A DNA stretch of 61,447 nt from Gammaproteobacteria bacterium RIFCSPHIGHO2_02_FULL_42_13 (GCA_001801405.1 MGXQ01000012.1:156-61602), one strand, 5' to 3'. Counted from the first letter of the stretch, positions 9,449 through 39,921 are shown. Numbers and translations are program-made. The notes: generated by a model not told the origin, from the sequence alone.

Positions 9449-11592
9449 GAAGAAATTATATTCATTATATCAAACGTTGCTTGTGTGACTTCAACCATAT
9501 CGTCAAAAGAAATAGGAGAAGCGGATCCTGACAATATCGCGTCCACGGTTTTTTGCACACAGGCATATTGCCCTTTATCCTGGCGAAATAAATGCATATT
9601 TTTGCAATTGGTCACACCGTAAGCACGCAATGTTTTAAAATTATCTAAATTAAAAACGCGGCCACCACAATAAACCTCTAATCGCTCCTTCGGCACCGCA
9701 CGATGACCATTGGATAAGTAATGAATAGTCCCTAACGAACCATCTTTAAAATGCAAAACAACGACCACCTGATCATTTTGGACTGACTTGCCGCTGACTT
9801 GCCCAACGGCGCTCACGTTGATATCAACAATGGGACTGCACGCCAAAAAACGCAACAAATCAATCATGTGACATGCTTCACCGACAATGCGACCGCCACC
9901 CACTTTCAAATCTTGTGTCCAATGATCAGAGGGAATAGCGCCCGCATTCACTGTCATCAATAATACTTTAGATTCTGGCGTAGCAGATAATACCTCATGC
10001 ATTTTTTCAATCAGTGGCGAAAAACGACGATTAAACCCGATCATTAAAAAAGGCGACTTTCTTTGCTGCGCCAAACTATTATAAGTGTTTTTAACCCGCT
10101 CAAGTTCATCAGAAAAAATAGCCAACGGCTTTTCAACATACACGCGCTTTCCATGATTTAATGCCTGGCAAATTAAATCAGCATGCGAATCATGTTGCGT
10201 GGCAATGACAATCGTATTAATGGCTGAATCTTCCATTACCGCATTAACATTCGTTGCACTGTTTTTAATGTTAAATTGTTTTGCCACTTGTCGCGCACTC
10301 ACACCACCACTGGATACAATGCTATGTAATACGGCGCCCGCTTTTTTGAATGCGGGAATCAATGTGCGGCTTGCATAATTACCTGCGCCAATAAACCCGA
10401 CAATAACTTGTTGCTCACTCGAATAAACAATCGGCAAATCATCCGATCGCACCACAAAAGACTGTTTTTTTCCTGTCTCATCCCGAGGATAATCAATCAC
10501 AAGTCCTAAAAGAGCGCTGTTAGAATCGGTCAGGCATTCATAAGCAAAAACCGCTGTATCAATCGGAAAATGCGCTGAAATTAACGGCGCAATATTCAGC
10601 CGTTTATCCGCCATTAAATCCAACACCGCCTCAAAATTTCGTTGCTCTGTCCAACGCACAAAACCAATGGGATAATCGGCTCCGCCTTCTTCATACGCTT
10701 TATCATAACGACCAGGACCATACGAACAAGACACCTGAAAAGTTAATTCTTTTTTATAAAAATCATCGCGCGATAACTCTAAACCCACGACACCAACCAA
10801 AATAATACGCCCGCGCTGACGAGACATTTGAGCCGCTTGATGCATCAGATCATTACTTTTGCTCGACGCCGTTACTAACACTGCATCGATCCCTCGGCCA
10901 TGCGAAAATTCTAAGGCTAATTTAACCGGATCAGGATGCATGGTTAAATCAATCGTCTCCGCGCCAAATTGTTTTGCTAAGGCCAATTTAGATTTATCAA
11001 AATCAATACCGACTACGCGACATCCATTTGCACGCAATAACTGAACGACCAATAACCCTAACAAACCCAAACCAAAAACAGCGATGGTTTCACCCATTTC
11101 AGGCTGCGTTAAGCGAACCCCTTGTAAAGCAATCGCACCGACTACACCAAACACAGCCTCATCATCAGAAACCGTTGCAGGAATATGCGCACAAAGATTT
11201 TGCGGCACGCAAACCATTTCGGCATGCGCGCCGTTCGACAAAACACGATCGCCAACATTAAATTCGCGCACATCCGACCCAACCGCAATCACTCGCCCTA
11301 CATTGCTATAACCCATTGGAATAGATTTAGATAACTTATTATTCACCGCCTCTAATGTTGGCAGAATGCCATCTGTCTTTAGCTTTGCTAATACTTGCTT
11401 TACTTTATCAGGCTGTTGTTTTGCTTTTGACAACCAACTGGATTTTCCAAACGACACCAACATTCTTTCGGTTCCCGCTGAAATCAAAGAACGCTGTGTT
11501 TCAATTAACACGTGTCCCGCCTTACATTGAGGACAAGGAATGTCAGCAACCTCTGTTTCACCTGTTTTTAAACTCTGTAATATCTGTTTCAT
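9445..11592 (-). CDS. bi-domain oxidoreductase: MDR/Zn-ADH-like N-terminal half plus Gfo/Idh/MocA C-terminal half
   Basis: The N-terminal half has [15 protein letters not shown] and [19 protein letters not shown]. The C-terminal half has [18 protein letters not shown] and VYVEKPLA. 715 aa. Confidence 0.8.
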
Positions 11593-12657: not shown

Positions 12658-14475
12658 ATGGCACTCATTTTTAATTTAGCATATTTTTTTACCATCTGCG
12701 GGCTGGGCATGCCGCTCGCGGCACGATTAAAATTTGATCCCTTTCAAAAGCTCATTGCCGGCTTTCTGTTCGGCTCTATCATCACCGCATTTTATCTGTT
12801 CTTCATTACAAAATGGATGCTCGCAACCCCCGGATATATTTTAGGGTTCACCCTACTCTCGCTGATTATCGCATCGTTTTATATAAAAACGCTCTGGACG
12901 ACACTAAAATCCGTTGGCCACTTTTTGAAAGGACATTTAATCAAACAGGATCGGTGGAGCGTATATTTTATCGGCATGCTCATTTTTTTAATTCTATGGA
13001 TTATTTTATTGGCATACACGCCAGAGCGATCCGCTGATGCTATGCGTTATCATTTAGCTCAAATGAAAGATATCATATTAAATCACGGTTTTATCTTCAG
13101 GCCCTATCTACATTATAACTTCCCCATTTTTTTTCATCTGATGTTTTTGCCTTCCTTTATTTTATTTGGCGGAGTAGGCGTAAAACTGGCCGTTTGTTTA
13201 TATTTTTTGTTTTCACTACTCATTCTGCAGTACTTAGCAGCTCGAATTAACTTAAAACATACGCGATTGTTTTTTATTATCCTATTTCTAACGCCACTCG
13301 CATATCACGAGGCGCATCTTGTCACCAATGACTGGATTGTTATATTTTATAGTTTAATCGGTTTTCTATTTTTAACAACCGACTCGCACAAAAAAACCGG
13401 TATTTATGTTGCCTTTGCTGCACTTGGCTTTGCCTTGGGCGTGAAATATCAAAGCATTTTGTTTATCCCTTGGTATATCATACTGGCTTATGCGCAATTA
13501 GAAAAAGAAAAAAAGATACACCTCATCAATGCGCTGATACTGATGACACTCATCGCATCGCCTTGCTATATCAGAAACTATATTAATCTAGGCAATCCTG
13601 TATGGCCGCTGGCTCAAAATATCTTTGGATCCTCATCTCAACAATTGCAAATACTCGCTCAAAACTTTACAGATGCAATGAGCGGACATCACAATCTACA
13701 CAGCATCATTATCGATCTCAAAAACTTTATTTTCTATCCCTTGATTCCTATCACATTTTGGTTCTTAATTATCGCCGGCCTCTTCAGTTGCCGTATTAAA
13801 AAATTACAAATGCAAATCGGCGTTATAAGTTATTTTGTATTGTGGTGGCTTGTGGAGCCAACACTATATACACGATTCTCTCTCTATCTTTTTCCTCTTG
13901 CATTAATGGCCGCCATAACGTTATATGACAACATCCAGCATCGCTTAAGCAAATGGATTTATAACATACTCTTAGTCATTACGTTGATTTATTGTATTGC
14001 AATCGCCGCGTATTATTCTATATTTTACATCCGATTTTACTTAACCCATAATCTAAATCAATATCATCAATATACTTGGAACTATAGCGACTACCAATGG
14101 ATCGACCAGCATACCCCTGCAAACGCTAAATTTCTATGCATATTGCGCGCGGGACAAACTTACTATCTCAATCGCTCTTACCTACGCGCAGAACCCAATC
14201 TTTCTGGTTTAATCGACTGGTCGAGTATCACCAGCACGCGACAATTATTCACGCTTTTAAAAAAAATGAACATCAATTACATCTTTTATGAAACAGACTG
14301 GAATGACACCCTCGGCGGAAAAAACATGGAAAATTTATTGACCCATCTCGTCAACTTGCATTATGCTCAACTCGTTTTTGTTCATACTGAACAATTATCT
14401 TATTCGAGAATAAAAAACCAATTTGGACAATCGACATTTTACTTAATTCGATTAGACCGTGGAACGACAAAATGA
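12658..14475 (+). CDS. polytopic membrane GT-C-fold glycosyltransferase-like protein
   Basis: 605 aa with more than 10 hydrophobic segments. It has an acidic loop motif after the early helices (PERSADAMRYHLAQ) and a soluble C-terminal domain. It is 4-nt coupled to the downstream GT2-GtrA gene. Confidence 0.5.
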   Translation: MALIFNLAYFFTICGLGMPLAARLKFDPFQKLIAGFLFGSIITAFYLFFITKWMLATPGYILGFTLLSLIIASFYIKTLWTTLKSVGHFLKGHLIKQDRWSVYFIGMLIFLILWIILLAYTPERSADAMRYHLAQMKDIILNHGFIFRPYLHYNFPIFFHLMFLPSFILFGGVGVKLAVCLYFLFSLLILQYLAARINLKHTRLFFIILFLTPLAYHEAHLVTNDWIVIFYSLIGFLFLTTDSHKKTGIYVAFAALGFALGVKYQSILFIPWYIILAYAQLEKEKKIHLINALILMTLIASPCYIRNYINLGNPVWPLAQNIFGSSSQQLQILAQNFTDAMSGHHNLHSIIIDLKNFIFYPLIPITFWFLIIAGLFSCRIKKLQMQIGVISYFVLWWLVEPTLYTRFSLYLFPLALMAAITLYDNIQHRLSKWIYNILLVITLIYCIAIAAYYSIFYIRFYLTHNLNQYHQYTWNYSDYQWIDQHTPANAKFLCILRAGQTYYLNRSYLRAEPNLSGLIDWSSITSTRQLFTLLKKMNINYIFYETDWNDTLGGKNMENLLTHLVNLHYAQLVFVHTEQLSYSRIKNQFGQSTFYLIRLDRGTTK

Positions 14476-15551
14476 CAACCCATACATTGAGCATCATCAT
14501 TCCCTGTTTCAATGAAGAAAAAACATTGGAACTCTGTATCCAGAAGGTGTTTGCCATCCAAACGCCCGATATTCAATTAGAATTATTGATTGTTGATGAT
14601 TGCTCAAGCGATCGTAGCCCAGCCGTCGCAAAAAAATTAGCGGCACAATTTAAAGAAATAAAATTAATTGTCCACGAAAAAAACCAAGGCAAAGGCGCCG
14701 CAATTCGTACGGGAATGCAACAGGCCACCGGCGATTTTATCGCCATTCAAGACGCCGACCTAGAATACGATCCGCGCGATCTGACGCGACTCATTCAGCC
14801 ATTGATTGAAAACCGCGCCGACGTCGTGCTCGGTTCACGATTTCATACATCATGCGAAAGACGTATTTTGTATTTCTGGCACAGCATGGGCAATAAATTT
14901 CTGACCTTCCTCTCTAATATGTTTACCGATTTAAACTTAACCGACATGGAAACATGTTACAAAATATTTAGACGGAATAAAATCCAAGATATTACCATCG
15001 AGGAAAACCGTTTTGGATTTGAACCTGAAATTGTCGCAAAAATAGCACAAAAAAAATTACGTATTTATGAAATGGGCATTTCCTATCACGGGCGCACTTA
15101 TGAAGAAGGCAAAAAGATCGGATGGAAAGATGGGATACGCGCGTTTTATTGTATTTTTCATTATAACGCCCATCAATTACCTGCTCCCATGCAACTTTTA
15201 ATTTACTTTGGCATTGGCAGCATTGCGGCACTTATCAATTTATTAACATTTGCTATCTTATTCTATGCAGGCATAACCATCATTACTGCCGCCGCCCTTT
15301 CTTTTATTATTGCCGCCACAGCAAATTATTTACTTTGTATTCATTTTTTATTTAGACATAAAGCTAGATGGACTGCGAAAATAGAGATTTTTATCTATGC
15401 CGGACTGGCTATATTGATTGGGCTCATCGACATCTCTATCACCTATTATCTTGCGCATCTTTTATTACGACCCATCTTTGCAAAAGCAATCGCTTCTGTT
15501 TTAGTGTTTTTTTTAAATTTTTTAGGCCGAAAATATTTTGTGTTTAAATAA
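14472..15551 (+). CDS. polyprenyl-phosphate glycosyltransferase (GT2, ArnC/DPM1-like) fused to a GtrA-like membrane domain
   Basis: The GT2 domain has LSIIIPCFNEEKTL, VDDCSSDRS and IQDADLEYDP. The C-terminal part, about 120 aa, has 4 hydrophobic helices and ends in FLNFLGRKYFVFK, which is GtrA-like. Confidence 0.8.
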   Translation: MTTHTLSIIIPCFNEEKTLELCIQKVFAIQTPDIQLELLIVDDCSSDRSPAVAKKLAAQFKEIKLIVHEKNQGKGAAIRTGMQQATGDFIAIQDADLEYDPRDLTRLIQPLIENRADVVLGSRFHTSCERRILYFWHSMGNKFLTFLSNMFTDLNLTDMETCYKIFRRNKIQDITIEENRFGFEPEIVAKIAQKKLRIYEMGISYHGRTYEEGKKIGWKDGIRAFYCIFHYNAHQLPAPMQLLIYFGIGSIAALINLLTFAILFYAGITIITAAALSFIIAATANYLLCIHFLFRHKARWTAKIEIFIYAGLAILIGLIDISITYYLAHLLLRPIFAKAIASVLVFFLNFLGRKYFVFK

Positions 15552-15618: not shown

Positions 15619-17511
15619 TTAAATAAGAAAGATACGGCACCACAGCTCAATACACAACAAAGAAAAAATCGGATAGCTTGCATCAATCCGCCCCGTTTGA
15701 TTGTCTGCTATCAATTTTTTAACAGCGCCCGCATCAAACAAACCACGATGATTAATCGACGACTCAGATAACAAATCAGCCGCCATCTCGCGTAAATTAT
15801 TTTTCAACCAAAATCGCAACGGCACCCCAAAACCTGTTTTTTTACGATAAATAATCTCCTTTGGCAAATAGTTTTCCATCGCTTTTTTTAAAATCCATTT
15901 ACTCACTTTTCCGTTTTGCTTAAAGGCAGTCGGCAACGATGTGGCATATTCAACCAGATCCAAATCTAAAAATGGCACACGCGTCTCAACACTCGCCGCC
16001 ATGCTCATTTTATCGGTATAATTTAAATTATGATCGGCTAAAAAATATTTGGTTTCTAAATATAACATTTTATTCAGATCGGGCATCTCTTGGGGTAACT
16101 GACGTAACGTATGCATTAACACATCGTTTTGTTCGGCCGAAACCAACTGTTTCCTGAGCTCATCACTATACAAGCCATTTTGAATAGCCGGTTGCAACCA
16201 ATAGAAATAACTGGCGATCCGCTGTGTTCGATCAACATCAGCGTATGCGAATGCTTTTTTAAATCGACGCAATTTGTTTTCAGAAAGTTTTTGTGTCAAT
16301 AACGCCACTTGTCTACGCGCCCCCTTTGGCAACCAAGCCCAATATCGCTCTTGCATGAGCGCATAATGGCGTCGATAACCTGAAAAAATATCATCGCCGC
16401 CGGCGCCCGATAACAAAACTTTCATTCCCTGATCACGCGCTAATTTCGCAATAAAAAACGTATTTAACGCAGCGGGATCTGCTTGCGGCTCATCTAAATG
16501 CTCAATCATCATCGGCAATTGATCGATCATATCAGCGCGCACATCAATCACCTGCAGCGGAACATTTAAATACTTTGCCACTTTTTCGGCGTAGGGCCAA
16601 TCTTCAACCGTTCCTTCAGATTGACCAAACTGATCCGCAAATCGCATCGTAAAACAAGGCAATTTTCGTGCGGGATCAATCTCTTTTACCATCGCAACAA
16701 TGGCGCTCGAATCTAATCCGCCCGATAAAAATGCACCGACAGGCACATCTGAAATCAATTGTCGCTCGACCGCTTGTTTAAATTTAGCCTGCAATAATGA
16801 TACGGCTTCATGTACCGAATACGATTTAATCGGCTGATCGTAAGGCAAATCATAATAACGCCACTGCTTTTGAATTTTTCCTGCTTTAATCACACAAGCA
16901 GATCCGGGTAATAATTTTTTTATAGACGTTAACATTGTATCGGGTGATGGCGACCAAAGATATCGCAGATGATTATGAATCGCTAAGGGATTTAATTCGC
17001 GCGACGCGGACGATTCTTTTAACAAACATTTTAATTCGCTCGCAAATAAAAAACCTTTGCTTGTTTGCGAATAATACAACGGTTTAACACCCAAATGATC
17101 GCGCGCCAATAAAATCTGTTGATTCCGCGTATCATAAATCGCAAACCCAAAAATACCATTTAATTTTTTGAATAATGCAATGCCATCGCGCAAATATAAA
17201 TTTAATATTACTTCCGTATCTGTGTCATTATTAAATTCAAACCCTTCTTTGACCAGTTCTTTGCGCAATTCAGGAAAATTATAGATTTCGCCATTAAACA
17301 CAATGCAAGCAGTATGACTCGCATCCCACATGGGCTGATTCCCTTTTTCCGAGATATCAATAATCGATAATCGACGATGCGCCAATCCAATTTGAAAGGA
17401 CGCATTATAATAGACGGCCTGATGATCGGGGCCGCGATACGAAATGGTTTCGATCATGTTAATCAGTAATTCTTGTGAAAAATTTCCGGAAAAACCGGCA
17501 ATACCACACAT
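15619..17511 (-). CDS. asnB: asparagine synthase (glutamine-hydrolysing) family amidotransferase
   Basis: Ntn nucleophile MCGIAGF and PP-loop AFLSGGLDSSAIVAM. 630 aa. Confidence 0.85.
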   Translation of the reverse strand: MCGIAGFSGNFSQELLINMIETISYRGPDHQAVYYNASFQIGLAHRRLSIIDISEKGNQPMWDASHTACIVFNGEIYNFPELRKELVKEGFEFNNDTDTEVILNLYLRDGIALFKKLNGIFGFAIYDTRNQQILLARDHLGVKPLYYSQTSKGFLFASELKCLLKESSASRELNPLAIHNHLRYLWSPSPDTMLTSIKKLLPGSACVIKAGKIQKQWRYYDLPYDQPIKSYSVHEAVSLLQAKFKQAVERQLISDVPVGAFLSGGLDSSAIVAMVKEIDPARKLPCFTMRFADQFGQSEGTVEDWPYAEKVAKYLNVPLQVIDVRADMIDQLPMMIEHLDEPQADPAALNTFFIAKLARDQGMKVLLSGAGGDDIFSGYRRHYALMQERYWAWLPKGARRQVALLTQKLSENKLRRFKKAFAYADVDRTQRIASYFYWLQPAIQNGLYSDELRKQLVSAEQNDVLMHTLRQLPQEMPDLNKMLYLETKYFLADHNLNYTDKMSMAASVETRVPFLDLDLVEYATSLPTAFKQNGKVSKWILKKAMENYLPKEIIYRKKTGFGVPLRFWLKNNLREMAADLLSESSINHRGLFDAGAVKKLIADNQTGRIDASYPIFSLLCIELWCRIFLI

Positions 17512-17512: not shown

Positions 17513-18772
17513 TTATCGCCAAAGATGGGTTGGATTAATAAGAAGTTTGTCTTTTAGTGTCGCCTGATCGATTCGATTAAATGCAGTGTGCGGCACCAAA
17601 ACAACAATAATATTCGCACGTTCAACAGCAGATCGATAATCGGTTAATTCCATTTTGCCCTTTAAAGAGGCCGGCAACGCAGTGATATGCGGCTCAACGA
17701 CTAATAACTCTTTAATTGCTGTTTGTTTTGATAATGCCTTAACTATCGTGATCGCTGGACTTTCTCTTAAATCGTCAATGTCGGGTTTGTATGACAACCC
17801 CAAACAAGCCACAATCGAATTAGGATGCTGCACTAATAATTTTTCAATCTGTTTTACAATATACTGCGGCTTAAAATTATTGACTTGTCTTGCTGCTTGT
17901 ATCAACGGCGTGATGTCCTGCGCGCTATCCACAATAAACCAAGGATCCACCGCAATACAATGTCCGCCCACGCCAGAACCAGGCTGCAAAATATTCACGC
18001 GAGGATGGTGATTAGCCAATCGAATCAACTCCCACACATCCACTCCTAAACGATCGCAGACCAATGACATTTCATTCGCAAAGGCAATATTGACATCACG
18101 ATAAGAATTTTCTGTCAGCTTCGCTAACTCTGCTGTTCGAGTATCCGTAATTAAACATTCTCCTTTTACAAATAGTTGATAGACTTTTTTTGCCTTGCTA
18201 GCACACAGCGGCGTCATACCTCCTAAAATACGATCATTCATCGTTAATTCATGTAAAACTTTCCCCGGAATCACGCGCTCGGGACAATAACAAATATTAA
18301 TATCAGGAACATCTGATGAGAATGGAAATGAAAGATCAGAACGATCTTTAGACAACCAATGTGCCAACTGTTCGGATGTTCCAACCGGCGACGTGGATTC
18401 TAAAATAACTAAATTCCCCTTTTCTAATTTTGGAGCCAACTTCTTTGCCGCTAATTCGATATAAGATATATCGGGCTTATGATCGCCCTTGAATGGCGTG
18501 GGCACGGCAATAATAAAAACATCTGCCGACTCACATTCTATTGTGGCTCGAAGCCGACCTGTTTGAATCGCAGCATCAACCATGCTATCTAACCCAGGCT
18601 CAACAATGTGAACTTTGCCCTGATTAACGGTACGGACAATAGTCTCGTTAATATCGACACCAACGACTTGCACGCCCTGATTTGCAAACAAAGCAGCGGT
18701 CGGTAATCCAATATAACCCAAACCAATCACAACGATCTTATTAATCTGAAAATTATTCATGTGTTGTTTCAA
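17513..18772 (-). CDS. wecC: UDP-N-acetyl-D-mannosamine (or UDP-GlcNAc) 6-dehydrogenase
   Basis: KIVVIGLGYIGLPTAALFA and the catalytic-Cys region GVGGHCIAVDPWF. The gene lies directly downstream of wecB. Confidence 0.8.
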   Translation of the reverse strand: MKQHMNNFQINKIVVIGLGYIGLPTAALFANQGVQVVGVDINETIVRTVNQGKVHIVEPGLDSMVDAAIQTGRLRATIECESADVFIIAVPTPFKGDHKPDISYIELAAKKLAPKLEKGNLVILESTSPVGTSEQLAHWLSKDRSDLSFPFSSDVPDINICYCPERVIPGKVLHELTMNDRILGGMTPLCASKAKKVYQLFVKGECLITDTRTAELAKLTENSYRDVNIAFANEMSLVCDRLGVDVWELIRLANHHPRVNILQPGSGVGGHCIAVDPWFIVDSAQDITPLIQAARQVNNFKPQYIVKQIEKLLVQHPNSIVACLGLSYKPDIDDLRESPAITIVKALSKQTAIKELLVVEPHITALPASLKGKMELTDYRSAVERANIIVVLVPHTAFNRIDQATLKDKLLINPTHLWR

Positions 18773-19922
18773 AAACTTTATTTAAGGTATGTGTTGAAAA
18801 TGATGCCTCAACAATTTTATCTAAAATACGCCGCGCTGAACACCCATCGCCAAATGGATTGTTGATTCGTGCCATTGCTTCATATCGCGCTGTATTATGC
18901 ATTAAATCTTCAACGACAGCAACAATACGCGCCGCATCAGTTCCCACCAAAATGGCTGTGCCCGCTTCAATGGCTTCAGGTCGCTCTGTCACATCACGCA
19001 TCACCAGCACCGGCTTGCCTAGCACGGGGCCCTCTTCCTGTATTCCACCAGAATCAGTCAAAATTAAATGCGCTCGCTGCATCAAATAAACAAAAGGCGC
19101 ATATTCCAATGGCGCAAGCAAATGAACGTTATCATATTTATCAAGCATTGCCCTCACGGGTTCTTGCACATGCGGATTTAAATGCACCGGATAAACAATA
19201 TGCCAATCAGGATGTTTTGACGCAATCGTTGCCAACGCCTTACAAATATTTAAAAAACCTTCGCCGAAACTCTCTCGACGATGCCCTGTCACAAGAATAA
19301 TGGGTTGTTTCGAATGCATCACTTTATTAATCGAGCTAAAAATATCACTCCAATCAGTTCTTAATTTATTTTTTTTACAAACCCATAACAATGCGTCAAT
19401 AACCGTATTCCCCGTCACGGTAATACAATCCACCGCAATATTTTCTCGCACCAAGTTATCGTATGATTTTTTAGTCGGCGCAAAATGATGATGCGCCAAT
19501 CGCGTAATCAATGTTCGATTCGCTTCTTCCGGAAAGGGCGCATATAAATCATACGTGCGCAATCCCGCTTCCACATGTCCTACAGGAATTTTGAAATAAA
19601 ATCCTGCCAATGCACCCATAAAAGCACTGGTCGTGTCGCCTTGTACAATAATATAATCAGGCTGCGCACGAAACAAAACCTCCTTCAACCCCGATAAAAT
19701 ACGACTCGTCATATCCAAGACATGCTGATTGGCCAACATAATATCAAGATCATAATCGGGCGTGATGTCAAATAACGCCAACATCTGATCCAACATCTCA
19801 CGATGTTGACCCGTCACGCAAACTTGCACGTCAAAACGCGAATCAACTCTAGCCGCATGAATAACGGGCGCTAACTTAATCGCTTCAGGTCGCGTGCCGA
19901 ATATAACCAGTAATTTCATCAT
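18753..19922 (-). CDS. wecB: UDP-N-acetylglucosamine 2-epimerase (non-hydrolysing)
   Basis: MKLLVIFGTRPEAIKLAPV and DSGGIQEEGPVLGKPVLVMRDVTERPE. Confidence 0.9.
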   Translation of the reverse strand: MMKLLVIFGTRPEAIKLAPVIHAARVDSRFDVQVCVTGQHREMLDQMLALFDITPDYDLDIMLANQHVLDMTSRILSGLKEVLFRAQPDYIIVQGDTTSAFMGALAGFYFKIPVGHVEAGLRTYDLYAPFPEEANRTLITRLAHHHFAPTKKSYDNLVRENIAVDCITVTGNTVIDALLWVCKKNKLRTDWSDIFSSINKVMHSKQPIILVTGHRRESFGEGFLNICKALATIASKHPDWHIVYPVHLNPHVQEPVRAMLDKYDNVHLLAPLEYAPFVYLMQRAHLILTDSGGIQEEGPVLGKPVLVMRDVTERPEAIEAGTAILVGTDAARIVAVVEDLMHNTARYEAMARINNPFGDGCSARRILDKIVEASFSTHTLNKVFETTHE

Positions 19923-21061
19923 AATGATCTCAACACTTCATCAATAAATATGCCCGTTTTTTCTGCCGTCTTATTCCAAGAATAATTTTTTGCCCGTTGA
20001 TATGCTTTTTGAGCATATTGAAAACGCAAAGATTCATCATCGAGTAACTTCTTAATCGAACAGAAAATCTCATCTGTATCAGCAACCGTAAAGTATTCGC
20101 ACGCATTCTGCAATAATTCTTGCATGGGCTGCCCCTTCAAACAAACTATCGGCAATCCCGATGCTGCCGCTTCCAACAATGTATTGCCAAAGGTTTCACA
20201 ACGAGATGCAAAAATAAACAAATCTGCTCTGCGATAAAAATCTTTGATTTTAGGATAATGCCCTCCGTCTTCATATAATACTATATTACTCTTTGGATCA
20301 AGTTTATTTAATAGCCTCTGCAACCGCCTCAGTGCGGGCGGATATGCGGCGCCCACTAAACGCAATATCACCGGATACCCACCTTTCCTTAATTTAACAA
20401 CGGCTTTAACCACCGGATCCTGCTGTTTATAAAAATCAATTGTTGAAACATATAATAATTCGAACGGATTTTCGGCATTACAATGTTTGATCGATTTTTG
20501 ATGCCGGGGTTCAACATAAAAATCTTGACTAATCCCATGAGGGATAACACAAAATTTATTCATTGTAATGTGCGTTGATTTCTGCACAGCGCTCAAACTA
20601 TAATCCGTTAAAAAAATAATGCCGCTTGCTTTTTTAAAAGATCGTATCTGCGCATATCGCAATAACAATAACCGAAAAAACCGGAAATATCCAACGTAAC
20701 TGAAAATTTCCTTCCACAAAAACGGCAACATATTTTGACACATGACAATATAAGGAACTCGTTGCGCGTAACAAATACCGCCTGGAACAAATAATATATC
20801 ACACTGTCGTTCTGCCAGTTTAGGAAATTTAAATCCCTGCCACAAACTGCGATATAAAACATGTCGATTTAATATCGGTACAAACTGCAACTGCAACCAA
20901 TTCTTTTTTGGCAACTGCGACAATAATATATCTCCGCCCCAAACAAGAACGGCATCTATCCCATAAGCACGAGGATCCATATGCTTTAATAACTCAACCA
21001 GATGCACAACCCCACCGCCACTTCGAACATTTGATGCATCAATACCTAATCTCATAAACAA
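19919..21061 (-). CDS. glycosyltransferase family 4 (GT-B)
   Basis: C-terminal FASRCETFGNTLLEAAASGLPIVC (E-x7-E). 380 aa. The stop overlaps the wecB ATG (ATGA). Confidence 0.75.
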   Translation of the reverse strand: MFMRLGIDASNVRSGGGVVHLVELLKHMDPRAYGIDAVLVWGGDILLSQLPKKNWLQLQFVPILNRHVLYRSLWQGFKFPKLAERQCDILFVPGGICYAQRVPYIVMCQNMLPFLWKEIFSYVGYFRFFRLLLLRYAQIRSFKKASGIIFLTDYSLSAVQKSTHITMNKFCVIPHGISQDFYVEPRHQKSIKHCNAENPFELLYVSTIDFYKQQDPVVKAVVKLRKGGYPVILRLVGAAYPPALRRLQRLLNKLDPKSNIVLYEDGGHYPKIKDFYRRADLFIFASRCETFGNTLLEAAASGLPIVCLKGQPMQELLQNACEYFTVADTDEIFCSIKKLLDDESLRFQYAQKAYQRAKNYSWNKTAEKTGIFIDEVLRSL

Positions 21062-23130
21062 ACAAACTCCCCCAACAACGAATACGCATCGCCCCTCACG
21101 CCCTGTTTAAAATGGCTAATCGCCTGCGTATTTTTCACATCAACGCCACCTAAATCAAAATAAGAACAATGAATGGATTTTAATTCCAAAATAGCGTGCC
21201 ATAACAATAAATTATTGACATGAATTTTTCGGCCAGCCTCACCATTCCAACCCACAAAATAGGTAGCGGTTTGTCCATGTCGATACACCAAGATGCCCGC
21301 AACATATTCACCTTGATATTTTGCGCGCAACGTCACAAAACACTCTGGATCGAGAGCCTGTTGAGACATATAATGAATAAGCTTTTCTGAAACACCCGAA
21401 AAATCTTTGCTTTCTTTAAAATCATGATATTTTTTTAATAGCCAAGTCAATGCATCCGCGCCATATTCAACTTCAACCGAAACCTCTAACTTTTCTGCGG
21501 AACAGAGTTGATTTCGCCATTTTCCCGCCAATTGTTTACGCAGCAAATCTTCCGATTGAGATAAATCTATCGTCACTGAAGAATAAGGTTGTTTCTTCAC
21601 GTGATAATAGCCTAAAAGCGACAATAAATAATAATGATTAATATCCTCAGATAACTCTGGCGCAATACTTAAAACTTTTCTACTTAAGATGCCAGAAAAT
21701 CTTTTTTTCAATAAAGATAAACAGGCTATTTTATCAAGATACCCTACGCTTGATGACAGCCAAACAGGCCCTCGATTAATGCGATACAAACAAAACAAAC
21801 CAAAAAGCTTCTTTTGCAATAATTGACAAACAGCAACGGGCACTTGATTTTTCAATATAATTAAATGGCTCACGCCCCACGCTTCTTCATGTTGCTTCGC
21901 CTCACCATATAAAGCTGACTGTAACAAATTAGAATATTGGACATGATGAAACAGTTTTTTATACTCGTCCGAATGATCTCCCATCAATGAATACATGGGC
22001 AGAATACATTTTAACTTAGACTTTATGTTCTTTTTAAGATAGCGCTTAAAGTAACGAGACAATGATAACGACTGATGCACCGGAAATGCAACCATAGCAG
22101 AGTAAAACCGTATGGCATCAACATGCAAAGAGTGCTCATTCATCACTTCCGGCGGCAAATCAGGCCATTTTTGCATCAAGCATGTTAACGCCCTGTTAAA
22201 CCCATGCTGTTCAATACCAGTAAAAACAGCCAAATACGGAATATGTTTGTCATCCCCCAACAAATACCCCTTCCCATCAAGATTTATCAGCATATCATAA
22301 AATTGACGATTTTCACGCCGCCGCTTTTTAATGGCATCAATATCTTGCAATTCAATATACAATAATTTTTTTACAAATGGATGCATGGCGGACAAAGTTG
22401 AATAACGCTGTACGGATGTTTGTGCCGGCGTTTTACTATAGGTAAAAAACAAAGGGATAACTTTCTGAATCAATCGTTTTAAAATCCACGGAAAAACAGC
22501 CGGCGCATGATAAGCAAAACATTTTATAACGTTAGTCATTATCTCTGCCGAATTGTTCAGACTTGGATATAATCGCTTAATTTTTTTCGGAGACATCACA
22601 CAAATCGAACCCTGCGGAACCGCTAATAATTTATGGGGGCTATAAAGCGTAAAATGCCCCGCGCTCCCGATTTCATCTGTTGGACAAAGCACATGAGCAG
22701 CATCCTCGACAATTAACGATTGATATTGCTCGCAAAATCGTTTGGCTCCAACAAGATCCGATGGTTGTCCAAAATAATGCACTAACACAAAAATATCTGG
22801 CTTAGCCATTTTCGCTAACGCATGACATAAATCCCATTTTGGCATTAAATCTTTGTCGACAGAGTAAAACTTGATCGTCGCTGATGTGGCGCGCACCAAA
22901 CTCAACGCTTCATTACAAAAATAATCCGGAAACCAAATAACTGGCGACGCATCAAACGCTTTCTGCCACCAAAGCACAATCGCTTTTAACGCCCAACTCG
23001 AGCGTGATAACCAAAAAGATTTTCCTCCCAACGTTTGCCAATATGCCGATAACTGATCGTCGGATGGAACACTTTTAAAAATAGCTAAAAGCAAATTTTT
23101 TAATTTTGGCAGCGGTGCCTGCGTCAACAT
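21052..23130 (-). CDS. fusion protein: DegT/DnrJ/EryC1-like PLP-fold domain plus FemAB/GNAT-like aminoacyl/acyl-transferase domain
   Basis: The N-terminal half has VEDAAHVL and a Schiff-base-lysine-like context, LYSPHKLLAVPQGS. The C-terminal half has ATYFVGWNGEAGRKIHVNNLLLWHAILELKSIHCSYFDLGGV, the signature region of the FemAB / peptidoglycan-bridge family. Confidence 0.6.
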   Translation of the reverse strand: MLTQAPLPKLKNLLLAIFKSVPSDDQLSAYWQTLGGKSFWLSRSSWALKAIVLWWQKAFDASPVIWFPDYFCNEALSLVRATSATIKFYSVDKDLMPKWDLCHALAKMAKPDIFVLVHYFGQPSDLVGAKRFCEQYQSLIVEDAAHVLCPTDEIGSAGHFTLYSPHKLLAVPQGSICVMSPKKIKRLYPSLNNSAEIMTNVIKCFAYHAPAVFPWILKRLIQKVIPLFFTYSKTPAQTSVQRYSTLSAMHPFVKKLLYIELQDIDAIKKRRRENRQFYDMLINLDGKGYLLGDDKHIPYLAVFTGIEQHGFNRALTCLMQKWPDLPPEVMNEHSLHVDAIRFYSAMVAFPVHQSLSLSRYFKRYLKKNIKSKLKCILPMYSLMGDHSDEYKKLFHHVQYSNLLQSALYGEAKQHEEAWGVSHLIILKNQVPVAVCQLLQKKLFGLFCLYRINRGPVWLSSSVGYLDKIACLSLLKKRFSGILSRKVLSIAPELSEDINHYYLLSLLGYYHVKKQPYSSVTIDLSQSEDLLRKQLAGKWRNQLCSAEKLEVSVEVEYGADALTWLLKKYHDFKESKDFSGVSEKLIHYMSQQALDPECFVTLRAKYQGEYVAGILVYRHGQTATYFVGWNGEAGRKIHVNNLLLWHAILELKSIHCSYFDLGGVDVKNTQAISHFKQGVRGDAYSLLGEFVCL

Positions 23131-24887
23131 AATTTTTCCATCATCGAATCTAATTTTTCTCGTGCACGCCTATAATGAAATCTCAAGCCGCCCTCTGCTA
23201 AAAAACGCGCATAATGAACACCCAAACCAAGATCCATAGATTCGCGATAAAATACGCGGGACCGCGCACAATAGTTGCCTCGAACACCAGAATAAACATA
23301 TCGATAATGCTTTAATGCCAAAGATAATGCAACAGAATTAATGCTATCAACATCCCCCAGTGGATACGCAAAATGCTCAATCGATTGTTGCAATTGCGCT
23401 TCTAATATTTTTTTGCTTTGCGCCACTTCATAAAACAACTCTTCCGGCGATATAATTTTCGATAAACACGCATGCGTCATCGTATGCGAACCAATCGTAT
23501 GACCCGATCGAATAAGCCAGCGCAAATCGTCCCAGCTCATCGGCGCCATATCACCCGAAATATCCATCGCACGAAGCCGCAGTCGATTTTGCATAAACGC
23601 TATTTGCATTACACGATCAGCACAATCCACAAAACTCGGCGGTACAAAAAATAACGCTTTAATGTTAAGCGGGGTTAAAATTTCTTTCGCTACATGAAAA
23701 TTTGACTTAAATCCATCATCAAAACTTAATAGCAATTGGTGTCCAACAACCGTTTTATCTCCCCGTGCAATTTGCTCAAATTCATTCGGCGTAATCAATT
23801 GATAATGTTTTTGCAAAAATTGCATTTGTGCCCTGAAAGAATCAAACAAATGGTTTGGAATATCATGATAAAGCAAAATGCTTAAAGAATTATTCAGCAA
23901 CGGATTAACCACTGACCGGCAACGCTTAAGCCCCAATAAAAAAGGCAATGAATAGGCGAGTACATGACGAAATCGCATGAGCATTTCCCACATTAACCTA
24001 CCTAAACACACGCACATATGAACCCACGCTTTCCATGAAAACGGATTATAGCTAATCGCACGACGTAAATATTTACTCACTTGACGATATGGATCACCAT
24101 TTTTCATGAGCATTTTTCCACACATCCTATTTGCATTGGCGTAACAGTTTCTCATCAAAAAACGATAATATATATTTTTCGGTTGCCAATCCCTAAAATG
24201 CCGATCAAACAAACAGGTTACATGCGCGCAATGTTTTTCAATTTTTGCCGAAAAGCTGTCGTCGTGTATTCTAAAATATCCCAAAACATCATGCAAAAAA
24301 ACCATCTTACAACTCTTGCGCGCTAAGCGAAGCCACAAATCATAGTCTTCTACGCCCGCCAAACACGGTTCCTCAGAAAAACCATTAACACGCAAAAGAC
24401 TATTTTTTTTGAGCGTCACCGCCGACGTGGATAAGGCATTGCCTTTAAACAGCAGCTTTTTATAATCGAATTGCGCGCCGTATTTTAAAACCTTTGTTTT
24501 TTTATTCCTTGCATACAACCATTCATCGTGACAAACCAAATCAACATCGGCATGTTCATTAACATAATTTAACACGATTTCTAATTTATTTGTTTCCCAC
24601 CAATCATCCGAATCCAAAAAAGCAATTAACTCTGCGCGCGCGTGGCGCACCCCCTCGTTTCTAGCCGCACCGATAATCCCTTTGTTAGCAAAATTGACCA
24701 GGGTAAAGCGCTCATCCTTCATGGACTGCACCACATCAATCGTATCATCATTCGAAAAATTATTAACGATAATCACTTCCCAATCTGGTCGCGTTTGATC
24801 AAGAATCGACTGAAGACATATTTTCAAATATTGCGCTTGATTATAAGTCGGGATAACAATGGATACTGACAACTCATGGATCATCAT
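23124..24887 (-). CDS. fusion protein: GT2 glycosyltransferase plus NodB-type polysaccharide deacetylase
   Basis: The N-terminal domain has VSIVIPTYNQAQYL and FLDSDDWW. The C-terminal domain has LLSFDDGFKSNF and GSHTMTH, which are NodB homology motifs. Confidence 0.75.
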   Translation of the reverse strand: MMIHELSVSIVIPTYNQAQYLKICLQSILDQTRPDWEVIIVNNFSNDDTIDVVQSMKDERFTLVNFANKGIIGAARNEGVRHARAELIAFLDSDDWWETNKLEIVLNYVNEHADVDLVCHDEWLYARNKKTKVLKYGAQFDYKKLLFKGNALSTSAVTLKKNSLLRVNGFSEEPCLAGVEDYDLWLRLARKSCKMVFLHDVLGYFRIHDDSFSAKIEKHCAHVTCLFDRHFRDWQPKNIYYRFLMRNCYANANRMCGKMLMKNGDPYRQVSKYLRRAISYNPFSWKAWVHMCVCLGRLMWEMLMRFRHVLAYSLPFLLGLKRCRSVVNPLLNNSLSILLYHDIPNHLFDSFRAQMQFLQKHYQLITPNEFEQIARGDKTVVGHQLLLSFDDGFKSNFHVAKEILTPLNIKALFFVPPSFVDCADRVMQIAFMQNRLRLRAMDISGDMAPMSWDDLRWLIRSGHTIGSHTMTHACLSKIISPEELFYEVAQSKKILEAQLQQSIEHFAYPLGDVDSINSVALSLALKHYRYVYSGVRGNYCARSRVFYRESMDLGLGVHYARFLAEGGLRFHYRRAREKLDSMMEKLC

Positions 24888-24892: not shown

Positions 24893-25879
24893 TTACTTCT
24901 TAAATTTCTGGTCACAAAACAACAGCGTTTCATCAATTGCATCATCAATCTGTCGTGTTAACTCAAATCCCGTCGACTTTAACTTATCAATGTTATAGGC
25001 CAGTTTGTCTGTTTGATCAGCCGACGATTGAGCGCCTACACACAAAGGTGGTTTATAGCCGAAAAGAGTCTTGCAACGCTTCTGAATTAATTCAGCGATC
25101 TCTTTAATTTGCATCGAACATTCACCGCCTAAATTAAAAAGACCATCTTGCAGCTGATCACGCGGCAACCCAACTAAATGCGACACGGCTCTACTGACAT
25201 CGGTTAGCGTTATAAAATCGCGATATTGCAATCCCGCTGACCGCAATGTGATCTGCTTATTCATTACTGCCTGGCGACATAAATCATTCACAACAAGCGT
25301 CCATCGCCCACCAGATGCCGAAATAGGCGCACCAAATCCATTGGATAGCCGCACAACAAGTCCTTCTATTTCTTTGCGTTGAGCCGCCGCTAACACATGC
25401 TCTCCTGCCGCTTTATGCGTAACCGCATATGCCCCTACCGGTCGCGTTACGGTTAATTCATTAATCTCACCCGCCAAAGGAGCTCCATACACATGCGCTG
25501 TAGAAAAATAAATAAATCGTTTAACATTGCAATGTTTAGCACTTTCAAGTACTTTAAACGTCCCACGCTCATTCACTCTAACCGCATGTTTGGCATCCTT
25601 CGCACAATCGACTTCATGTAATGCAGCTAAATGCAAAATGACATCGATGTCCTGACATGCTCGTTCAATATCATCATCATTAACAAGATCCATCTCAACC
25701 ACGTCGCCCTTTGCGAGCCAACCTGGCTTTTGTATGCCCCGTCTATGCGTGGTTAAACGTAAATTCACCTCGGGATGATTTTTAGAAAAATATTGCGCCA
25801 CTCTGCCACCCACATAGCCCAAACCCCCTGTAATTAAAATACGCTGATGTTGCAATAATGGATCCATAGCACTACTCAT
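24893..25879 (-). CDS. NAD-dependent sugar epimerase/reductase (extended SDR)
   Basis: ILITGGLGYVGGRV and YAVTHK (YxxxK). The start is set at MSSAMD (ATG 25879), which forms an ATGA overlap with the rfbF stop. Confidence 0.75.
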   Translation of the reverse strand: MSSAMDPLLQHQRILITGGLGYVGGRVAQYFSKNHPEVNLRLTTHRRGIQKPGWLAKGDVVEMDLVNDDDIERACQDIDVILHLAALHEVDCAKDAKHAVRVNERGTFKVLESAKHCNVKRFIYFSTAHVYGAPLAGEINELTVTRPVGAYAVTHKAAGEHVLAAAQRKEIEGLVVRLSNGFGAPISASGGRWTLVVNDLCRQAVMNKQITLRSAGLQYRDFITLTDVSRAVSHLVGLPRDQLQDGLFNLGGECSMQIKEIAELIQKRCKTLFGYKPPLCVGAQSSADQTDKLAYNIDKLKSTGFELTRQIDDAIDETLLFCDQKFKK

Positions 25880-26661
25880 TCCCAAATGACCCAAGGCGCT
25901 TTACCCGCATCATACAGTCCATTTAATAAAGAATATTCGCGGTAGGTATCCATCGGTTGCCAAAAACCACCATGCTCATACAACATCATCTGCCGATCAG
26001 CGACTAATTTTTTTATCGGTTCTTGCTCAAACACCAACGCTTCGTCGTCACTTAAATAATTAAATATTTCACGACGACAGACAAAAAAACCGCCATTGAT
26101 ACAACCACCCGTGGATTGCGGTTTTTCGTTAAATTCAGTTACCAACCCCGCGGGGTCACTCATTAACTCACCAAAGCGACCCGGGGGATGCACGCCGGTC
26201 ATTGTTAAAATTTTTCCGTGGGATAAATGAAATGCGAGTAATTTATCTAAATCAATATCACCCACACCATCCCCATAGGTCAGCATAAAATGTTCGTCAT
26301 CCACGATATATTTTTTAATCCGCTTAATTCGAGCACCCGTCATTGCGTTCAACCCAGTTTCTGCCAATGTCACCTGCCAATCCGCTTCTTCATGCTTCCC
26401 ATGATATTCAACTCGCTTCGAATCTCCTAAAAAAACAGTATAATCACACATATGTGCTTTGTAATTACGAAAAAAATCCTTAATCACATCGGACTGATAT
26501 CCTAAACACAGCACAAATTCTTTATGATTCCAGCACGCATAGTATTTCATGATATGCCAAAGAATTGGAAAAGAACCAACCGGAATCATTGGTTTAGGAA
26601 TATTCTCCACAACACCACGAATTCTCGTGCCTTGACCTCCACATAAAATAACCGTTTTCAT
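25876..26661 (-). CDS. rfbF: glucose-1-phosphate cytidylyltransferase
   Basis: MKTVILCGGQGTRIRG...IPKPMIPVG..PILWHIM. The 261-aa length is typical of RfbF/DdhA. Confidence 0.88.
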   Translation of the reverse strand: MKTVILCGGQGTRIRGVVENIPKPMIPVGSFPILWHIMKYYACWNHKEFVLCLGYQSDVIKDFFRNYKAHMCDYTVFLGDSKRVEYHGKHEEADWQVTLAETGLNAMTGARIKRIKKYIVDDEHFMLTYGDGVGDIDLDKLLAFHLSHGKILTMTGVHPPGRFGELMSDPAGLVTEFNEKPQSTGGCINGGFFVCRREIFNYLSDDEALVFEQEPIKKLVADRQMMLYEHGGFWQPMDTYREYSLLNGLYDAGKAPWVIWE

Positions 26662-33868: not shown

Positions 33869-33872
33869 TTTA

Positions 33873-39683: not shown

Positions 39684-39878
39684 GATACTTATTGGATGAA
39701 CTGGATAAACTGCGAAATCGTTTGAATCATATAATCCAAAAGAAAGCTCAATATCTCATAAAAAATACAAAACAGTCAAGTTCCCCTCCCATTCAAATAA
39801 ATGAGCAAACATTGCCCTGCCCGTCTTCACCCCTAAACCAAAGAAATCATCCATATACTCCGTATAGAAGCTAGCATT

Positions 39879-39908
39879 TTCATATCAACTCGATACAATA
39901 AATATAAT
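39879..39908 (+). promoter_or_regulatory. candidate sigma70-type promoter (TTCATA-18 nt-TATAAT)
   Basis: A perfect -10 hexamer at 39903-39908 and a 4/6 -35 hexamer at 39879-39884. It would fire into the palindrome cluster and the omp gene. Pattern match only. Confidence 0.3.
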
Positions 39909-39921
39909 GTGAAGATTTCCC

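Follow-up and report, generated by a model that had tools for sequence, protein, structure and literature searches.

The enzymes closest in structure to the C-terminal part of the protein described here are FemX of Weissella viridescens (1NE9, 4II9) and FemX and FemA of S. aureus (6SNR, 1LRZ), aminoacyl-tRNA-dependent double-GNAT transferases whose acceptor is a peptide-stem lysine. FemX-like enzymes acting on amino sugars are known from Streptomyces antibiotic pathways: in the BD-12 pathway, Orf11 uses charged tRNA to aminoacylate the amino sugar of streptothrisamine (PMC12945691), and Sbb17 and Sba18 (PDB 9WQW-9WQY), according to the titles of their PDB entries, aminoacylate an amino-sugar intermediate. 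Furthermore, DhpH, an enzyme of dehydrophos biosynthesis, has a C-terminal Fem-like domain that uses Leu-tRNA to aminoacylate L-Ala(P) at its amine, and the catalytic lysine (Lys305 in FemX of Weissella, Lys329 in DhpH-C) is in both cases preceded by a phenylalanine, F304 and F328, respectively (PMC12945691). The product of DhpH is a phosphonate natural product and not a glycan. Its N-terminal domain is said to be PLP-dependent and to make the amine that the Fem-like domain then acylates; if this role is right, DhpH follows, within one polypeptide, the same two-step logic as that considered below. The PLP plus Fem architecture is analogous.

In the case of exopolysaccharides, pairs of a CE4 deacetylase and a Fem-like (Acetyltransf_6) protein have been described. 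For the Caulobacter holdfast, it has been proposed that the deacetylase HfsH uncovers amines which the Fem-like HfsK then acylates (PMC5362036). The wps-3 cluster of Actinoplanes, whose deletion gave no phenotype, harbors CE4, DegT-family, and BioF2-like acetyltransferase genes. Likewise, in all five PEP-CTERM genomes that we checked, a CE4 gene (TIGR03006) lies directly upstream, at about 100 bp, of a Fem-like gene (TIGR03019). Neither the TIGR03019 nor the HfsK systems have a PLP domain; they belong to different subfamilies and their biochemistry is putative as well. Lastly, the same enzyme classes are grouped together in the Arn (Ara4N) pathway, where ArnA/B/C/D represent the SDR, DegT aminotransferase, N-acyltransferase, GT2, and CE4 classes, and in the Nod-factor core, where NodC, NodB, NodS, and NodA are a GT2, a CE4, a methyltransferase, and an N-acyltransferase.

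The DNA analyzed here (hereinafter, the window) is a stretch of 61,447 nucleotides from Gammaproteobacteria bacterium RIFCSPHIGHO2_02_FULL_42_13, in which a first-pass annotation had recognized a gene whose 692-aa product has a DegT-like PLP domain fused to a FemAB-like domain. The reading frame was confirmed exactly (Table 1), from an ATG to a TGA on the minus strand; the plus-strand reading of the same interval contains many stops and was discarded. All the motifs that had been picked out (VEDAAHVL, LYSPHKLLAVPQGS, ATYFVGWNGEAGRK..., and YFDLGGV) are found in the translation, and the fusion itself is borne out by Pfam matches to both parts and by an AlphaFold2 model (mean pLDDT 91.7, pTM 0.85) in which both folds are complete. 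The product is a real two-domain enzyme, composed of a sugar-aminotransferase-like PLP half and a FemX-like half. No TM-like segment was seen in the protein, and we propose that it is a soluble, cytoplasmic, bifunctional enzyme that modifies a sugar within the repeat unit of a surface polysaccharide.

Table 1. Features of the fusion gene and of its surroundings (positions counted from the first letter of the window).
Feature	Position	Strand	Basis
Fusion gene, 692 aa, DegT-fold PLP and FemX-type double-GNAT domains	21052..23130	-	ORF, Pfam, homologues, AF2 model
N-terminal domain with a divergent DegT (sugar-aminotransferase) fold, residues 1-370	22021..23130	-	VIA Z, profile matches
K167 codon, predicted PLP Schiff-base lysine	22630..22632	-	Alignment to QdtB/PglE-like enzyme; codon checked
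E142-D143-A-A-H146, PLP pyridine-N/O3' motif	22693..22707	-	Alignment to EDAAQ/H of DegT enzymes
C-terminal domain, residues 380-692 and stop, FemX-type double GNAT without coiled-coil insert	21052..21993	-	VIA Z, profile
F674-K675 codons, equivalent to F304-K305 (catalytic Lys) of FemX Weissella	21106..21111	-	Alignment; role of Lys305 and DhpH-C Lys329 (PMC12945691)
GT2 glycosyltransferase and CE4 (NodB-type) de-N-acetylase fusion, upstream partner	23124..24887	-	Pfam
Atypical extended SDR, YxxxK lysine lost	24893-25894	-	Annotation, motif check
Glucose-1-phosphate cytidylyltransferase (RfbF)	25876-26661	-	Annotation
GT4 glycosyltransferase, downstream	19919..21055	-	Pfam
WecB, downstream	18753-19922	-	Pfam/annotation
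WecC, downstream	17513-18772	-	Pfam/annotation
AsnB-type amidotransferase, downstream	15619-17511	-	Pfam/annotation
CDP-glucose 4,6-dehydratase	41175-42281		

The fusion gene is embedded among polysaccharide genes that follow one another over 61 kb. The stop codon of the upstream GT2-CE4 gene overlaps its start (ATGTTGA) and the two genes are translationally coupled; at the other end, the likely ATG of the GT4 gene, at 21055, overlaps its TGA (ATGA), and a GT4 of the same cluster comes next after the fusion in 19 loci. Both neighbors that the first-pass annotation had named, the AsnB-type amidotransferase and the GT2-deacetylase fusion, are present, the former having counterparts in 19 out of 50 related loci. 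In other loci, too, the cassette is often directly preceded by the SDR and glucose-1-phosphate cytidylyltransferase genes. We considered the SDR as a 4,6-dehydratase feeding the PLP domain and rejected it, since it has STAHVYG in place of the TDE motif and another residue at the position of the YxxxK lysine. The window does encode keto-sugar makers, namely the CDP-glucose 4,6-dehydratase and RfbF.

The N-terminal half shares with QdtB, PglE, WecE, ArnB, WbpE, and PseC the fold, the Schiff-base lysine, the Asp and His of the EDAAH motif, and the VHxxG motif. The structure comparison (VIA) of model residues 1-369 gave Z values of 27.3 for WecE, 26.5 for WbpE, and 26.4 for both ArnB and PseC, over about 310-319 aligned residues, with both lobes of the DegT kind of fold-type I aminotransferase present. 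A profile of the N domain (A3) matched QdtB (E 2.3e-12) and a PglE-like enzyme (E 3.2e-11), with K167 aligned under the catalytic lysine of both, and K167, E142, D143, and H146 are invariant in 79/79 relatives from many phyla. Hence, the predicted PLP-binding residues, on whose survival under careful alignment the first-pass annotation had made its assignment depend, are retained. All the solved relatives matched by this half are keto-sugar or inosose aminotransferases; to our knowledge, so are all the characterized DegT-family enzymes that keep the lysine. As alignment and model show, the N-terminal half has a DegT-type PLP fold, complete and yet divergent, and it would bind PLP and carry out a transamination.

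Its divergence is nevertheless strong. Unlike the DegT aminotransferases, it has a Fem-like partner and invariant residues of its own (W215, R219, Q222, and W322-P323), it is two residues shorter between the conserved Ser/His and the lysine, and it lies far under the equivalog cut-offs (15-32 bits with the NCBIfam models for PseC, WecE, ArnB, LegC, and RfbH, against cut-offs of 375-631), so that it belongs to none of these groups. The match to the Pfam model DegT_DnrJ_EryC1 (PF01041) is marginal and partial (23.6 bits versus a cut-off of 19.8, about 70 residues, 115-185 only, E 3.6e-5). This short and weak match, as well as the two-residue deletion before the lysine, would be in agreement with a non-catalytic N half, that is, a sugar-nucleotide-binding or scaffold module derived from an aminotransferase, with the Fem half as the sole enzyme; we consider this very unlikely, in view of the invariance of the four PLP residues, of the whole two-lobed fold modeled with high confidence, and of the existence of the N part as a free-standing gene.

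As for the C-terminal half, Pfam assigns residues 543-663 to Acetyltransf_6 (43.8 bits, cut-off 22) and residues 604-690 to FemAB (32.6 bits, cut-off 24), which places it with the FemABX transferases (PF02388, clan with PF13480). A PDB search with the single C-half sequence gave nothing useful, and its structural relatives were recovered by profile searches: the C-domain profile (A2) matched FemX of S. aureus with E 2.5e-28 and FemX of Weissella with E 9e-21 (over residues 12-306). Model residues 380-692 superimpose on FemA with Z 28.8 (rmsd 2.7, 294 aa), on FemX of S. aureus with Z 27.8, and on FemX of Weissella with Z 27.0 (301 aa); Foldseek gave a TM of 0.76 by target for the FemX-type fold. 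Sbb17/Sba18 are also matched (Foldseek E 4e-16, TM 0.74-0.76 by target; profile E 2e-10), these and Orf11 being single-domain enzymes that, unlike the fusion protein, have neither a PLP part nor a CE4/GT2 cassette. The half is therefore a full FemX-type double GNAT and not a plain single GNAT; a plain acetyl-CoA GNAT was the outcome that the first-pass annotation had named as contradicting its reading.

F674-K675 is aligned on F304-K305 of FemX of Weissella, and both residues are invariant in 67/67 relatives; K412 corresponds to K36 (kept in 62/67) and Y624 to Y254 (64/67), and the coiled-coil insert is absent from both proteins. Nonetheless, identity is only about 15-19%, the position of D108 is occupied by the Ala of an IAPE motif, and no conserved residue corresponds to R211; K36, Y254, D108, and R211 are all residues that have been probed by mutation in FemX of Weissella. 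K36, of which a K36M mutant structure is present in the PDB, presumably binds the diphosphate of the acceptor, and we take R211 and K36 to bind the specific acceptor, a different one here, i.e., presumably a sugar amine instead of a peptide-stem lysine. The conserved catalytic residues suggest that the Fem domain may use aminoacyl-tRNA. The window carries no tRNA genes, which is uninformative on tRNA use.

Could the donor instead be an acyl-CoA or acyl-ACP, so that the C half works without tRNA and puts an ordinary acyl group on the nitrogen of the amino sugar? The top Pfam match, Acetyltransf_6, is a GNAT-named model, database names are often “GNAT family N-acetyltransferase”, D108 and R211 of FemX are lost, and the donor is proven for no member of this subfamily, nor for HfsK or TIGR03019. 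On the other hand, the entire FemX fold and the invariant F-K pair, shared with DhpH-C, are present, no acetyl-CoA GNAT family of Pfam (Acetyltransf_1 and similar) matches the fusion protein, and all the solved relatives found (FemX/A, Sbb17/Sba18, and MprF/A-PGS) are tRNA-dependent. This makes such a donor improbable. Overall, we consider it probable that the Fem domain takes an amino acid from aminoacyl-tRNA and joins it, through an amide bond, to the amine of a sugar. The acceptor would bear a diphosphate, being an NDP-sugar or else a sugar linked to undecaprenyl-PP.

The database survey suggested by the first-pass annotation revealed that the fusion is not unique to its source genome, but belongs to a large and widespread family. 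A total of 391 proteins of similar length matched at E<=1e-3, the best with E 6e-164 and 42% identical to the fusion protein from end to end, a similarity that, on these alignment scores, is far beyond chance; at E<=1e-30 the family counts 1159 clusters (50% identity). It has spread over many phyla by gene transfer; in pathogenic Leptospira, whose serovar chemistry is poorly understood, it is found in the rfb (LPS) locus. Literature searches found no published functional characterization. In 27 of 56 well-flanked loci the N and C parts form a single gene; they are neighbors on the same strand in another 11 and lie no more than 3 kb apart in another 12, so that 50 have a Fem part and 6 do not; on the N-domain tree, the fused or split state changed at least six times. 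The loci with the N part only, considered as a proof of an N domain independent of Fem, are weakened by the finding that, in four of five such genomes, a Fem gene is present outside the locus. No larger fusion (>1211 aa, e.g., GT2-CE4-PLP-Fem) was found, which is weak evidence; DegT+GNAT and class-I aminotransferase+Acetyltransf_6 fusions exist as cluster-level leads in the Atlas.

Some relatives are recorded as “lipid II:glycine glycyltransferase FemX”. A true peptidoglycan FemX is, however, the least credible of the alternatives, close to negligible: differently from FemX/FemA, the fusion gene resides in a polysaccharide rather than a cell-wall locus, translationally coupled to glycosyltransferases, and is joined to a sugar-aminotransferase fold; its presence among relatives is patchy (2/30), as for surface-antigen genes; and throughout the 80 loci surveyed the family is accompanied by GT2, CE4, and sugar-nucleotide genes.

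A CE4 gene is present in 42/50 loci with a Fem part versus 0/6 without it (Fisher p about 1e-4, with no correction for the relatedness of the loci), a divergent 43rd copy occurring in locus L036, and in 37 of the 42 no more than 1 kb separates it from the N gene. Its TFDD and HxxxH motifs are invariant and the nearest solved structures are IcaB, PgdA, and PgaB. A soluble GT2 is found in 41/50 loci with a Fem part and a methyltransferase between GT2 and CE4 in 19/50. A recognizable 4,6-dehydratase motif within 10 kb, instead, occurs in 29/50 loci and RfbF/RfbG in 17/50. Hence, a keto-sugar-forming enzyme is not a constant partner, whereas the CE4 de-N-acetylase is. Moreover, in Rhodospirillales, Fem and CE4 form one operon with the N gene convergent or on another contig, and in locus L085 the CE4 adjoins the Fem gene with the N gene on another contig.

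Some further assignments were tried and rejected. Unlike in Arn, the GT2 has no TM-like segments and is not an ArnC/GtrB-like membrane enzyme, and the CE4 part, considered as an ArnD-like deformylase, has no match to an ArnD model; unlike in both Arn and Nod, the N-acyltransferase is of the Fem type, and not a formyltransferase or NodA. A small cupin-size gene (cluster c11), which as a 3,4-ketoisomerase would point to a 3-amino sugar, is weakly RmlC-like, and of the large proteins upstream of N in L052 and L062, considered as PglF-type dehydratases, one is PMT_2 (GT-C)-like and the other has no Pfam match.

In principle, the acceptor amine might have two origins, and the CE4 de-N-acetylase is the second possible one. 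The order that we prefer, plausible although held at somewhat less than even confidence, follows that of the Arn pathway (aminotransferase, N-acyltransferase, GT2, and CE4): the DegT-fold domain, with PLP (K167, D143), would transaminate a nucleotide-activated keto-sugar; the fused Fem domain would aminoacylate the newly made amine; the co-conserved soluble GT2 would transfer the sugar; and the CE4 fused to it would then remove an N-acetyl group. Its first two steps would amount to the channeling of a new amino sugar into aminoacylation that the first-pass annotation had proposed. The folds and conserved residues of both halves, the recurrent fusion and splitting of the two parts, the N gene of locus L076 (see below), the keto-sugar makers of the window, and the DhpH, Orf11, and Sbb17/Sba18 precedents are counted in favor of this order. 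The large distance of the N domain from all named aminotransferases is counted against it, as are the inconstant presence of keto-sugar-forming enzymes, the motifs lost from the SDR, and the recurrent CE4-Fem module of PEP-CTERM loci, which has no PLP part. Furthermore, since the CE4 tracks the Fem part, and stands beside it even when the N gene is elsewhere, this order needs an extra assumption.

Alternatively, the GT2 might add a HexNAc to a lipid-linked unit, the CE4 deacetylate it, and the Fem domain aminoacylate the 2-amine, with the PLP domain transaminating or epimerizing (L to D) the attached amino acid, or aminating the same sugar elsewhere. The co-occurrence and closeness of CE4 and Fem, the Rhodospirillales operon, and the GT2-CE4 polypeptide of the window, overlapping the start of the fusion gene, are in favor of this order, as are the TIGR03006-TIGR03019 pairs without a PLP part and the proposed action of HfsH and HfsK; in addition, the cassette would be self-sufficient, each substrate coming from the preceding enzyme, and the divergence of the N domain would fit a new substrate class. 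We nevertheless regard it as somewhat unlikely, although only a little less likely than the order that we prefer. The amine acylated by the Fem-like domain of DhpH is one formed earlier in its pathway, and TIGR03019 is a different subfamily of putative function that matches neither the fusion protein at E<=1 nor anything in its own genome. Furthermore, we know of no DegT-fold enzyme using the alpha-amine of an aminoacyl or peptide group, that of a glycan-bound amino acid included. In locus L076, the N gene stands alone in a CDP-6-deoxyhexose operon (RfbF, RfbG, RmlC-like, SDR, GT2, N), and both CE4 and Fem are missing from the locus as well as from the (possibly incomplete) genome; this points to a sugar-nucleotide-linked role of the N part on its own. 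The version in which CE4 exposes the amine, Fem loads an L-amino acid, and the DegT domain converts it into an alpha-ketoacyl or D-aminoacyl group, all on a cytoplasmic lipid-linked glycan, is more doubtful still.

O-antigens and capsules are well known to carry amino acids in amide linkage to their amino sugars; the enzymes installing them are, as far as we know, largely unassigned, and the PLP-Fem family is a concrete candidate. The GT2-CE4-PLP-Fem cassette is small enough to be rebuilt in vitro, which makes both the source of the amine and the role of the PLP half directly testable. If the proposed activity is true, tRNA-dependent non-ribosomal amino-acid transfer would reach surface polysaccharides, beyond peptidoglycan, membrane lipids, and antibiotics. 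Should deacetylation, aminoacylation, and editing prove to be the order, aminoacyl-tRNA would feed the decoration of O-antigens and exopolysaccharides in Gram-negative bacteria, including Leptospira.

The gene which the first-pass annotation had read as a PLP-Fem fusion is a single minus-strand open reading frame with 692 codons; the plus strand of the same interval is closed, and no TM-like segment was found in the 692-aa product. It overlaps a neighbour at both ends: its ATG shares ATGTTGA with the stop of the gene upstream, and its TGA shares ATGA with the likely ATG of a downstream GT4 gene; the fusion gene is therefore translationally coupled within a long minus-strand operon. Pfam retrieved a weak and partial DegT match (residues 115-185) and, within the final 150 residues, Acetyltransf_6 and FemAB; PseC, WecE, ArnB and similar NCBIfam models also matched, all far below threshold. 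The genome (1.48 Mb, about 95% complete) harbors one copy of the gene.

An AlphaFold2 model was built from 56 homologues (mean pLDDT 91.7, pTM 0.85). Residues 1-369 superpose on WecE, ArnB, WbpE, PseC and other sugar aminotransferases (Z 26-27, about 315 residues), and residues 380-692 on FemA (Z 28.8) and on the FemX proteins of S. aureus (Z 27.8) and Weissella (Z 27.0); among the Foldseek matches are MprF/A-PGS and Sbb17/Sba18, tRNA-dependent peptide synthases in complex with streptothrisamine. A cytoplasmic enzyme composed of a sugar-aminotransferase-like half and a FemX-type half is well supported.

The profile of the N domain (20 sequences) matches QdtB (2.3e-12) and a PglE-like enzyme (3.2e-11), placing K167 under their Schiff-base lysine, if a two-residue deletion is allowed, and E142-D143-A-A-H146 under their EDAAQ/H motif. 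K167, D143, E142 and H146 are invariant (79/79 sequences collected), so that the PLP residues expected by the first-pass annotation hold on alignment. This half probably binds PLP, and it is very improbable that it is inactive. The profile of the C domain (20 sequences) matches FemX from S. aureus (2.5e-28) and Weissella (9e-21, over residues 12-306); K412, Y624 and F674-K675 correspond to K36, Y254 and F304-K305 of the latter, and for its D108 and R211 the alignment shows no conserved equivalent. FemX-type enzymes use Lys305 (DhpH-C Lys329) as their catalytic residue, and the preceding Phe is also important (PMC12945691). With its FemX fold and with F674 and K675 kept in 67/67 sequences collected, the C half is not a plain single GNAT. 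Judging from these residues, it very probably moves an amino acid from aminoacyl-tRNA onto an amine; a donor other than tRNA is improbable.

The N and C parts are functionally tied. Eighty loci were taken from one-genome-per-species contigs, 56 of them with at least 5 kb on both flanks. Among these 56, the two parts are fused in 27, adjacent on one strand in 11 (genes are only roughly called in high-GC loci, and some such pairs overlap in different frames) and no more than 3 kb apart in 12. The C part is absent from the remaining six loci; in four of five genomes from this group, another contig encodes a strong C-domain homologue (E about 1e-98 to 1e-103). The N-domain tree requires at least six changes between the fused and split states, at least three of which are forced by well-supported branches.

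Clustering of the neighbours revealed the recurring order (RfbF-RfbG-RmlC-like)-atypical SDR-soluble GT2-(methyltransferase)-CE4-PLP-Fem-GT4. Taking well-flanked loci as they come, regardless of kinship, a CE4 de-N-acetylase is present in 42/50 loci with the C part (43/50 with a divergent CE4 in locus L036) vs 0/6 without it; the corresponding values are 41/50 and 1/6 for the cassette-type GT2, 19/50 and 0/6 for both the methyltransferase and the AsnB-type gene, 17/50 and 1/6 for RfbF and RfbG, and 29/50 and 1/6 for any 4,6-dehydratase motif. In 37 of its 42 loci, CE4 is no more than 1 kb from the N gene; it has retained the TFDD and HxxxH motifs and is similar to IcaB, PgdA and PgaB. In the window and in L001, an 84%-identical relative, GT2 and CE4 form one polypeptide. 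In one genome, the Fem gene adjoins the CE4 gene and the N gene is elsewhere. That the fusion enzyme acts inside this GT2/CE4 glycan-tailoring cassette is well supported, and a peptidoglycan role can be given hardly any credence.

Two orders of action, which differ in where the acceptor amine would come from, can be depicted. In the order of the first-pass annotation, which we tentatively favor, the aminotransferase half would act first, followed by the Fem half, then GT2 and lastly CE4. This is consistent with everything known of DegT enzymes, has a precedent in DhpH-C, where a Fem-like domain aminoacylates a pathway-made amine, agrees with the enzyme order of the Arn pathway and fits the N gene standing alone within a CDP-sugar operon at locus L076. 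The order GT2, CE4, Fem and PLP half, which would account for CE4 tracking the Fem part and requires no missing enzyme, but gives the PLP half a substrate without precedent, appears only slightly less likely.

A comparable module was found within the same class, where PEP-CTERM-type Fem-like genes (TIGR03019) score above the cut-off in 36/201 genomes, a tally including two unpublished ones (G158 and G057), on which no other result here depends. In 5/5 genomes examined (G166, G217, G097, G205 and G113) the Fem-like gene is preceded, at a distance of about 100 bp and in the same orientation, by a CE4 gene (TIGR03006); this module shares the CE4 and Fem-like pairing with the cassette but lacks the PLP part in all five. 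For Caulobacter HfsH/HfsK, deacetylase and then acyltransferase action has been proposed (PMC5362036). An Actinoplanes EPS cluster also harbors CE4, DegT-family and BioF2-like (Acetyltransf_6) genes, and its deletion gave no phenotype.

As for the neighbours, the atypical SDR, also found at L007:6263-7225 and L008:6389-7351, has His or Asn in place of the YxxxK lysine and STAHVYG at the TDE position of dehydratases; it is just upstream of GT2 in at least 13 loci. A heparinase II/III-like protein and an AsnB-type amidotransferase are just upstream of the cassette in L004, L016, L024, L026, L030 and L070; in the window, the former adjoins a 715-aa ADH_zinc_N and GFO_IDH_MocA fusion. The free-standing N gene of some Rhodospirillales comes directly after the gene for a large protein (L052:7818-9995, similar to the ArnT-like GT-C family PMT_2; L062:8007-9995, a homologue without Pfam match), with the CE4 and Fem genes convergent to this pair and an Arn-like component list. 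In Leptospira loci (e.g., L008:12082-14097), a DUF1420 protein (about 670 aa, Pfam 1213 bits) is encoded after the fusion gene.

In this small genome, surface-glycan genes fill at least 61 kb, almost entirely on one strand. A legionaminic-acid-like nonulosonic acid pathway (37157-48567, minus strand) also includes a GFO oxidoreductase and an SDR; in its NeuB-family gene, a TAG just ahead of the conserved GYSDHT motif separates 221 and 136 aa in the same frame; it could reflect a nonsense mutation, codon read-through or an error of assembly. The surveyed 12-34 kb part has only two long plus-strand genes (12658-15551): one encodes a 605-aa protein that is rich in TM-like segments and gave no Pfam match, the other a fusion of GT2 with a GtrA-type TM domain. 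The pair resembles a periplasmic glycosylation module of the Gtr/Arn style. A further minus-strand group (32612-35834 and 53232-59015) embeds two radical SAM/SPASM proteins and a B12-binding radical SAM protein that adjoins an FkbM methyltransferase; together with the transketolase, kinase+cytidylyltransferase and SIS genes, these hint at C-methylated or chain-extended sugars.

Features of the window and their coordinates
Feature	Position	Strand	Remark
Heparinase II/III-like region	7862-11592	-	also in many loci, e.g., L004:3752-7438
PLP-Fem fusion gene	21052-23130	-	single ORF, 692 codons
Atypical extended SDR	24893-25894	-	Rossmann motif and Tyr kept, YxxxK lysine not
CMP-sugar synthetase	37951-38748	-	nonulosonic acid pathway
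RmlC-like gene	40702-41187	-	embedded in nonulosonic acid pathway
CDP-glucose 4,6-dehydratase	41175-42281	-	embedded in nonulosonic acid pathway
CBS+nucleotidyltransferase	42344-43459	-	nonulosonic acid pathway
PglD-like acetyltransferase	43402-44100	-	nonulosonic acid pathway
NeuB-family (nonulosonate synthase) gene	44037-45113	-	in-frame TAG at 44448-44450
NeuC-like 2-epimerase	45106-46254	-	nonulosonic acid pathway
DegT aminotransferase	46239-47477	-	nonulosonic acid pathway
LegB-like dehydratase	47416-48567	-	nonulosonic acid pathway
Kinase+cytidylyltransferase	51716-53212	-	
Split transketolase	55176-56909	-	
SIS isomerase	59015-59590	-	

A word-indexed search with the fusion protein retrieved 391 proteins of similar length; the best 120 (652-746 aa, nearly all aligned across the whole query) come from Leptospira, Legionella, Arcobacter, Thermodesulfobacteriota and many metagenomes. 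Carriers that can be cultured include Terasakiella sp. PR1, Phaeospirillum tilakii, Syntrophomonas wolfei and saprophytic Leptospira. The N-domain profile, searched exhaustively, matched 1159 clusters at E<=1e-30, and among the best 150 about 60% are free-standing (about 360-410 aa) and about 40% fused (about 690-736 aa); a search for longer forms found no member above 1211 aa. Public records name the members inconsistently (FemX, DegT aminotransferase, GNAT, glycosyltransferase, hypothetical), and literature searches turned up no experiment, biochemical or genetic, that tests the family. Only 2/30 relatives have a match; in one of the two, just the N part is present and it contains internal stops. 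The N-domain tree does not follow taxonomy, a pattern to be expected if surface-antigen genes are transferable.
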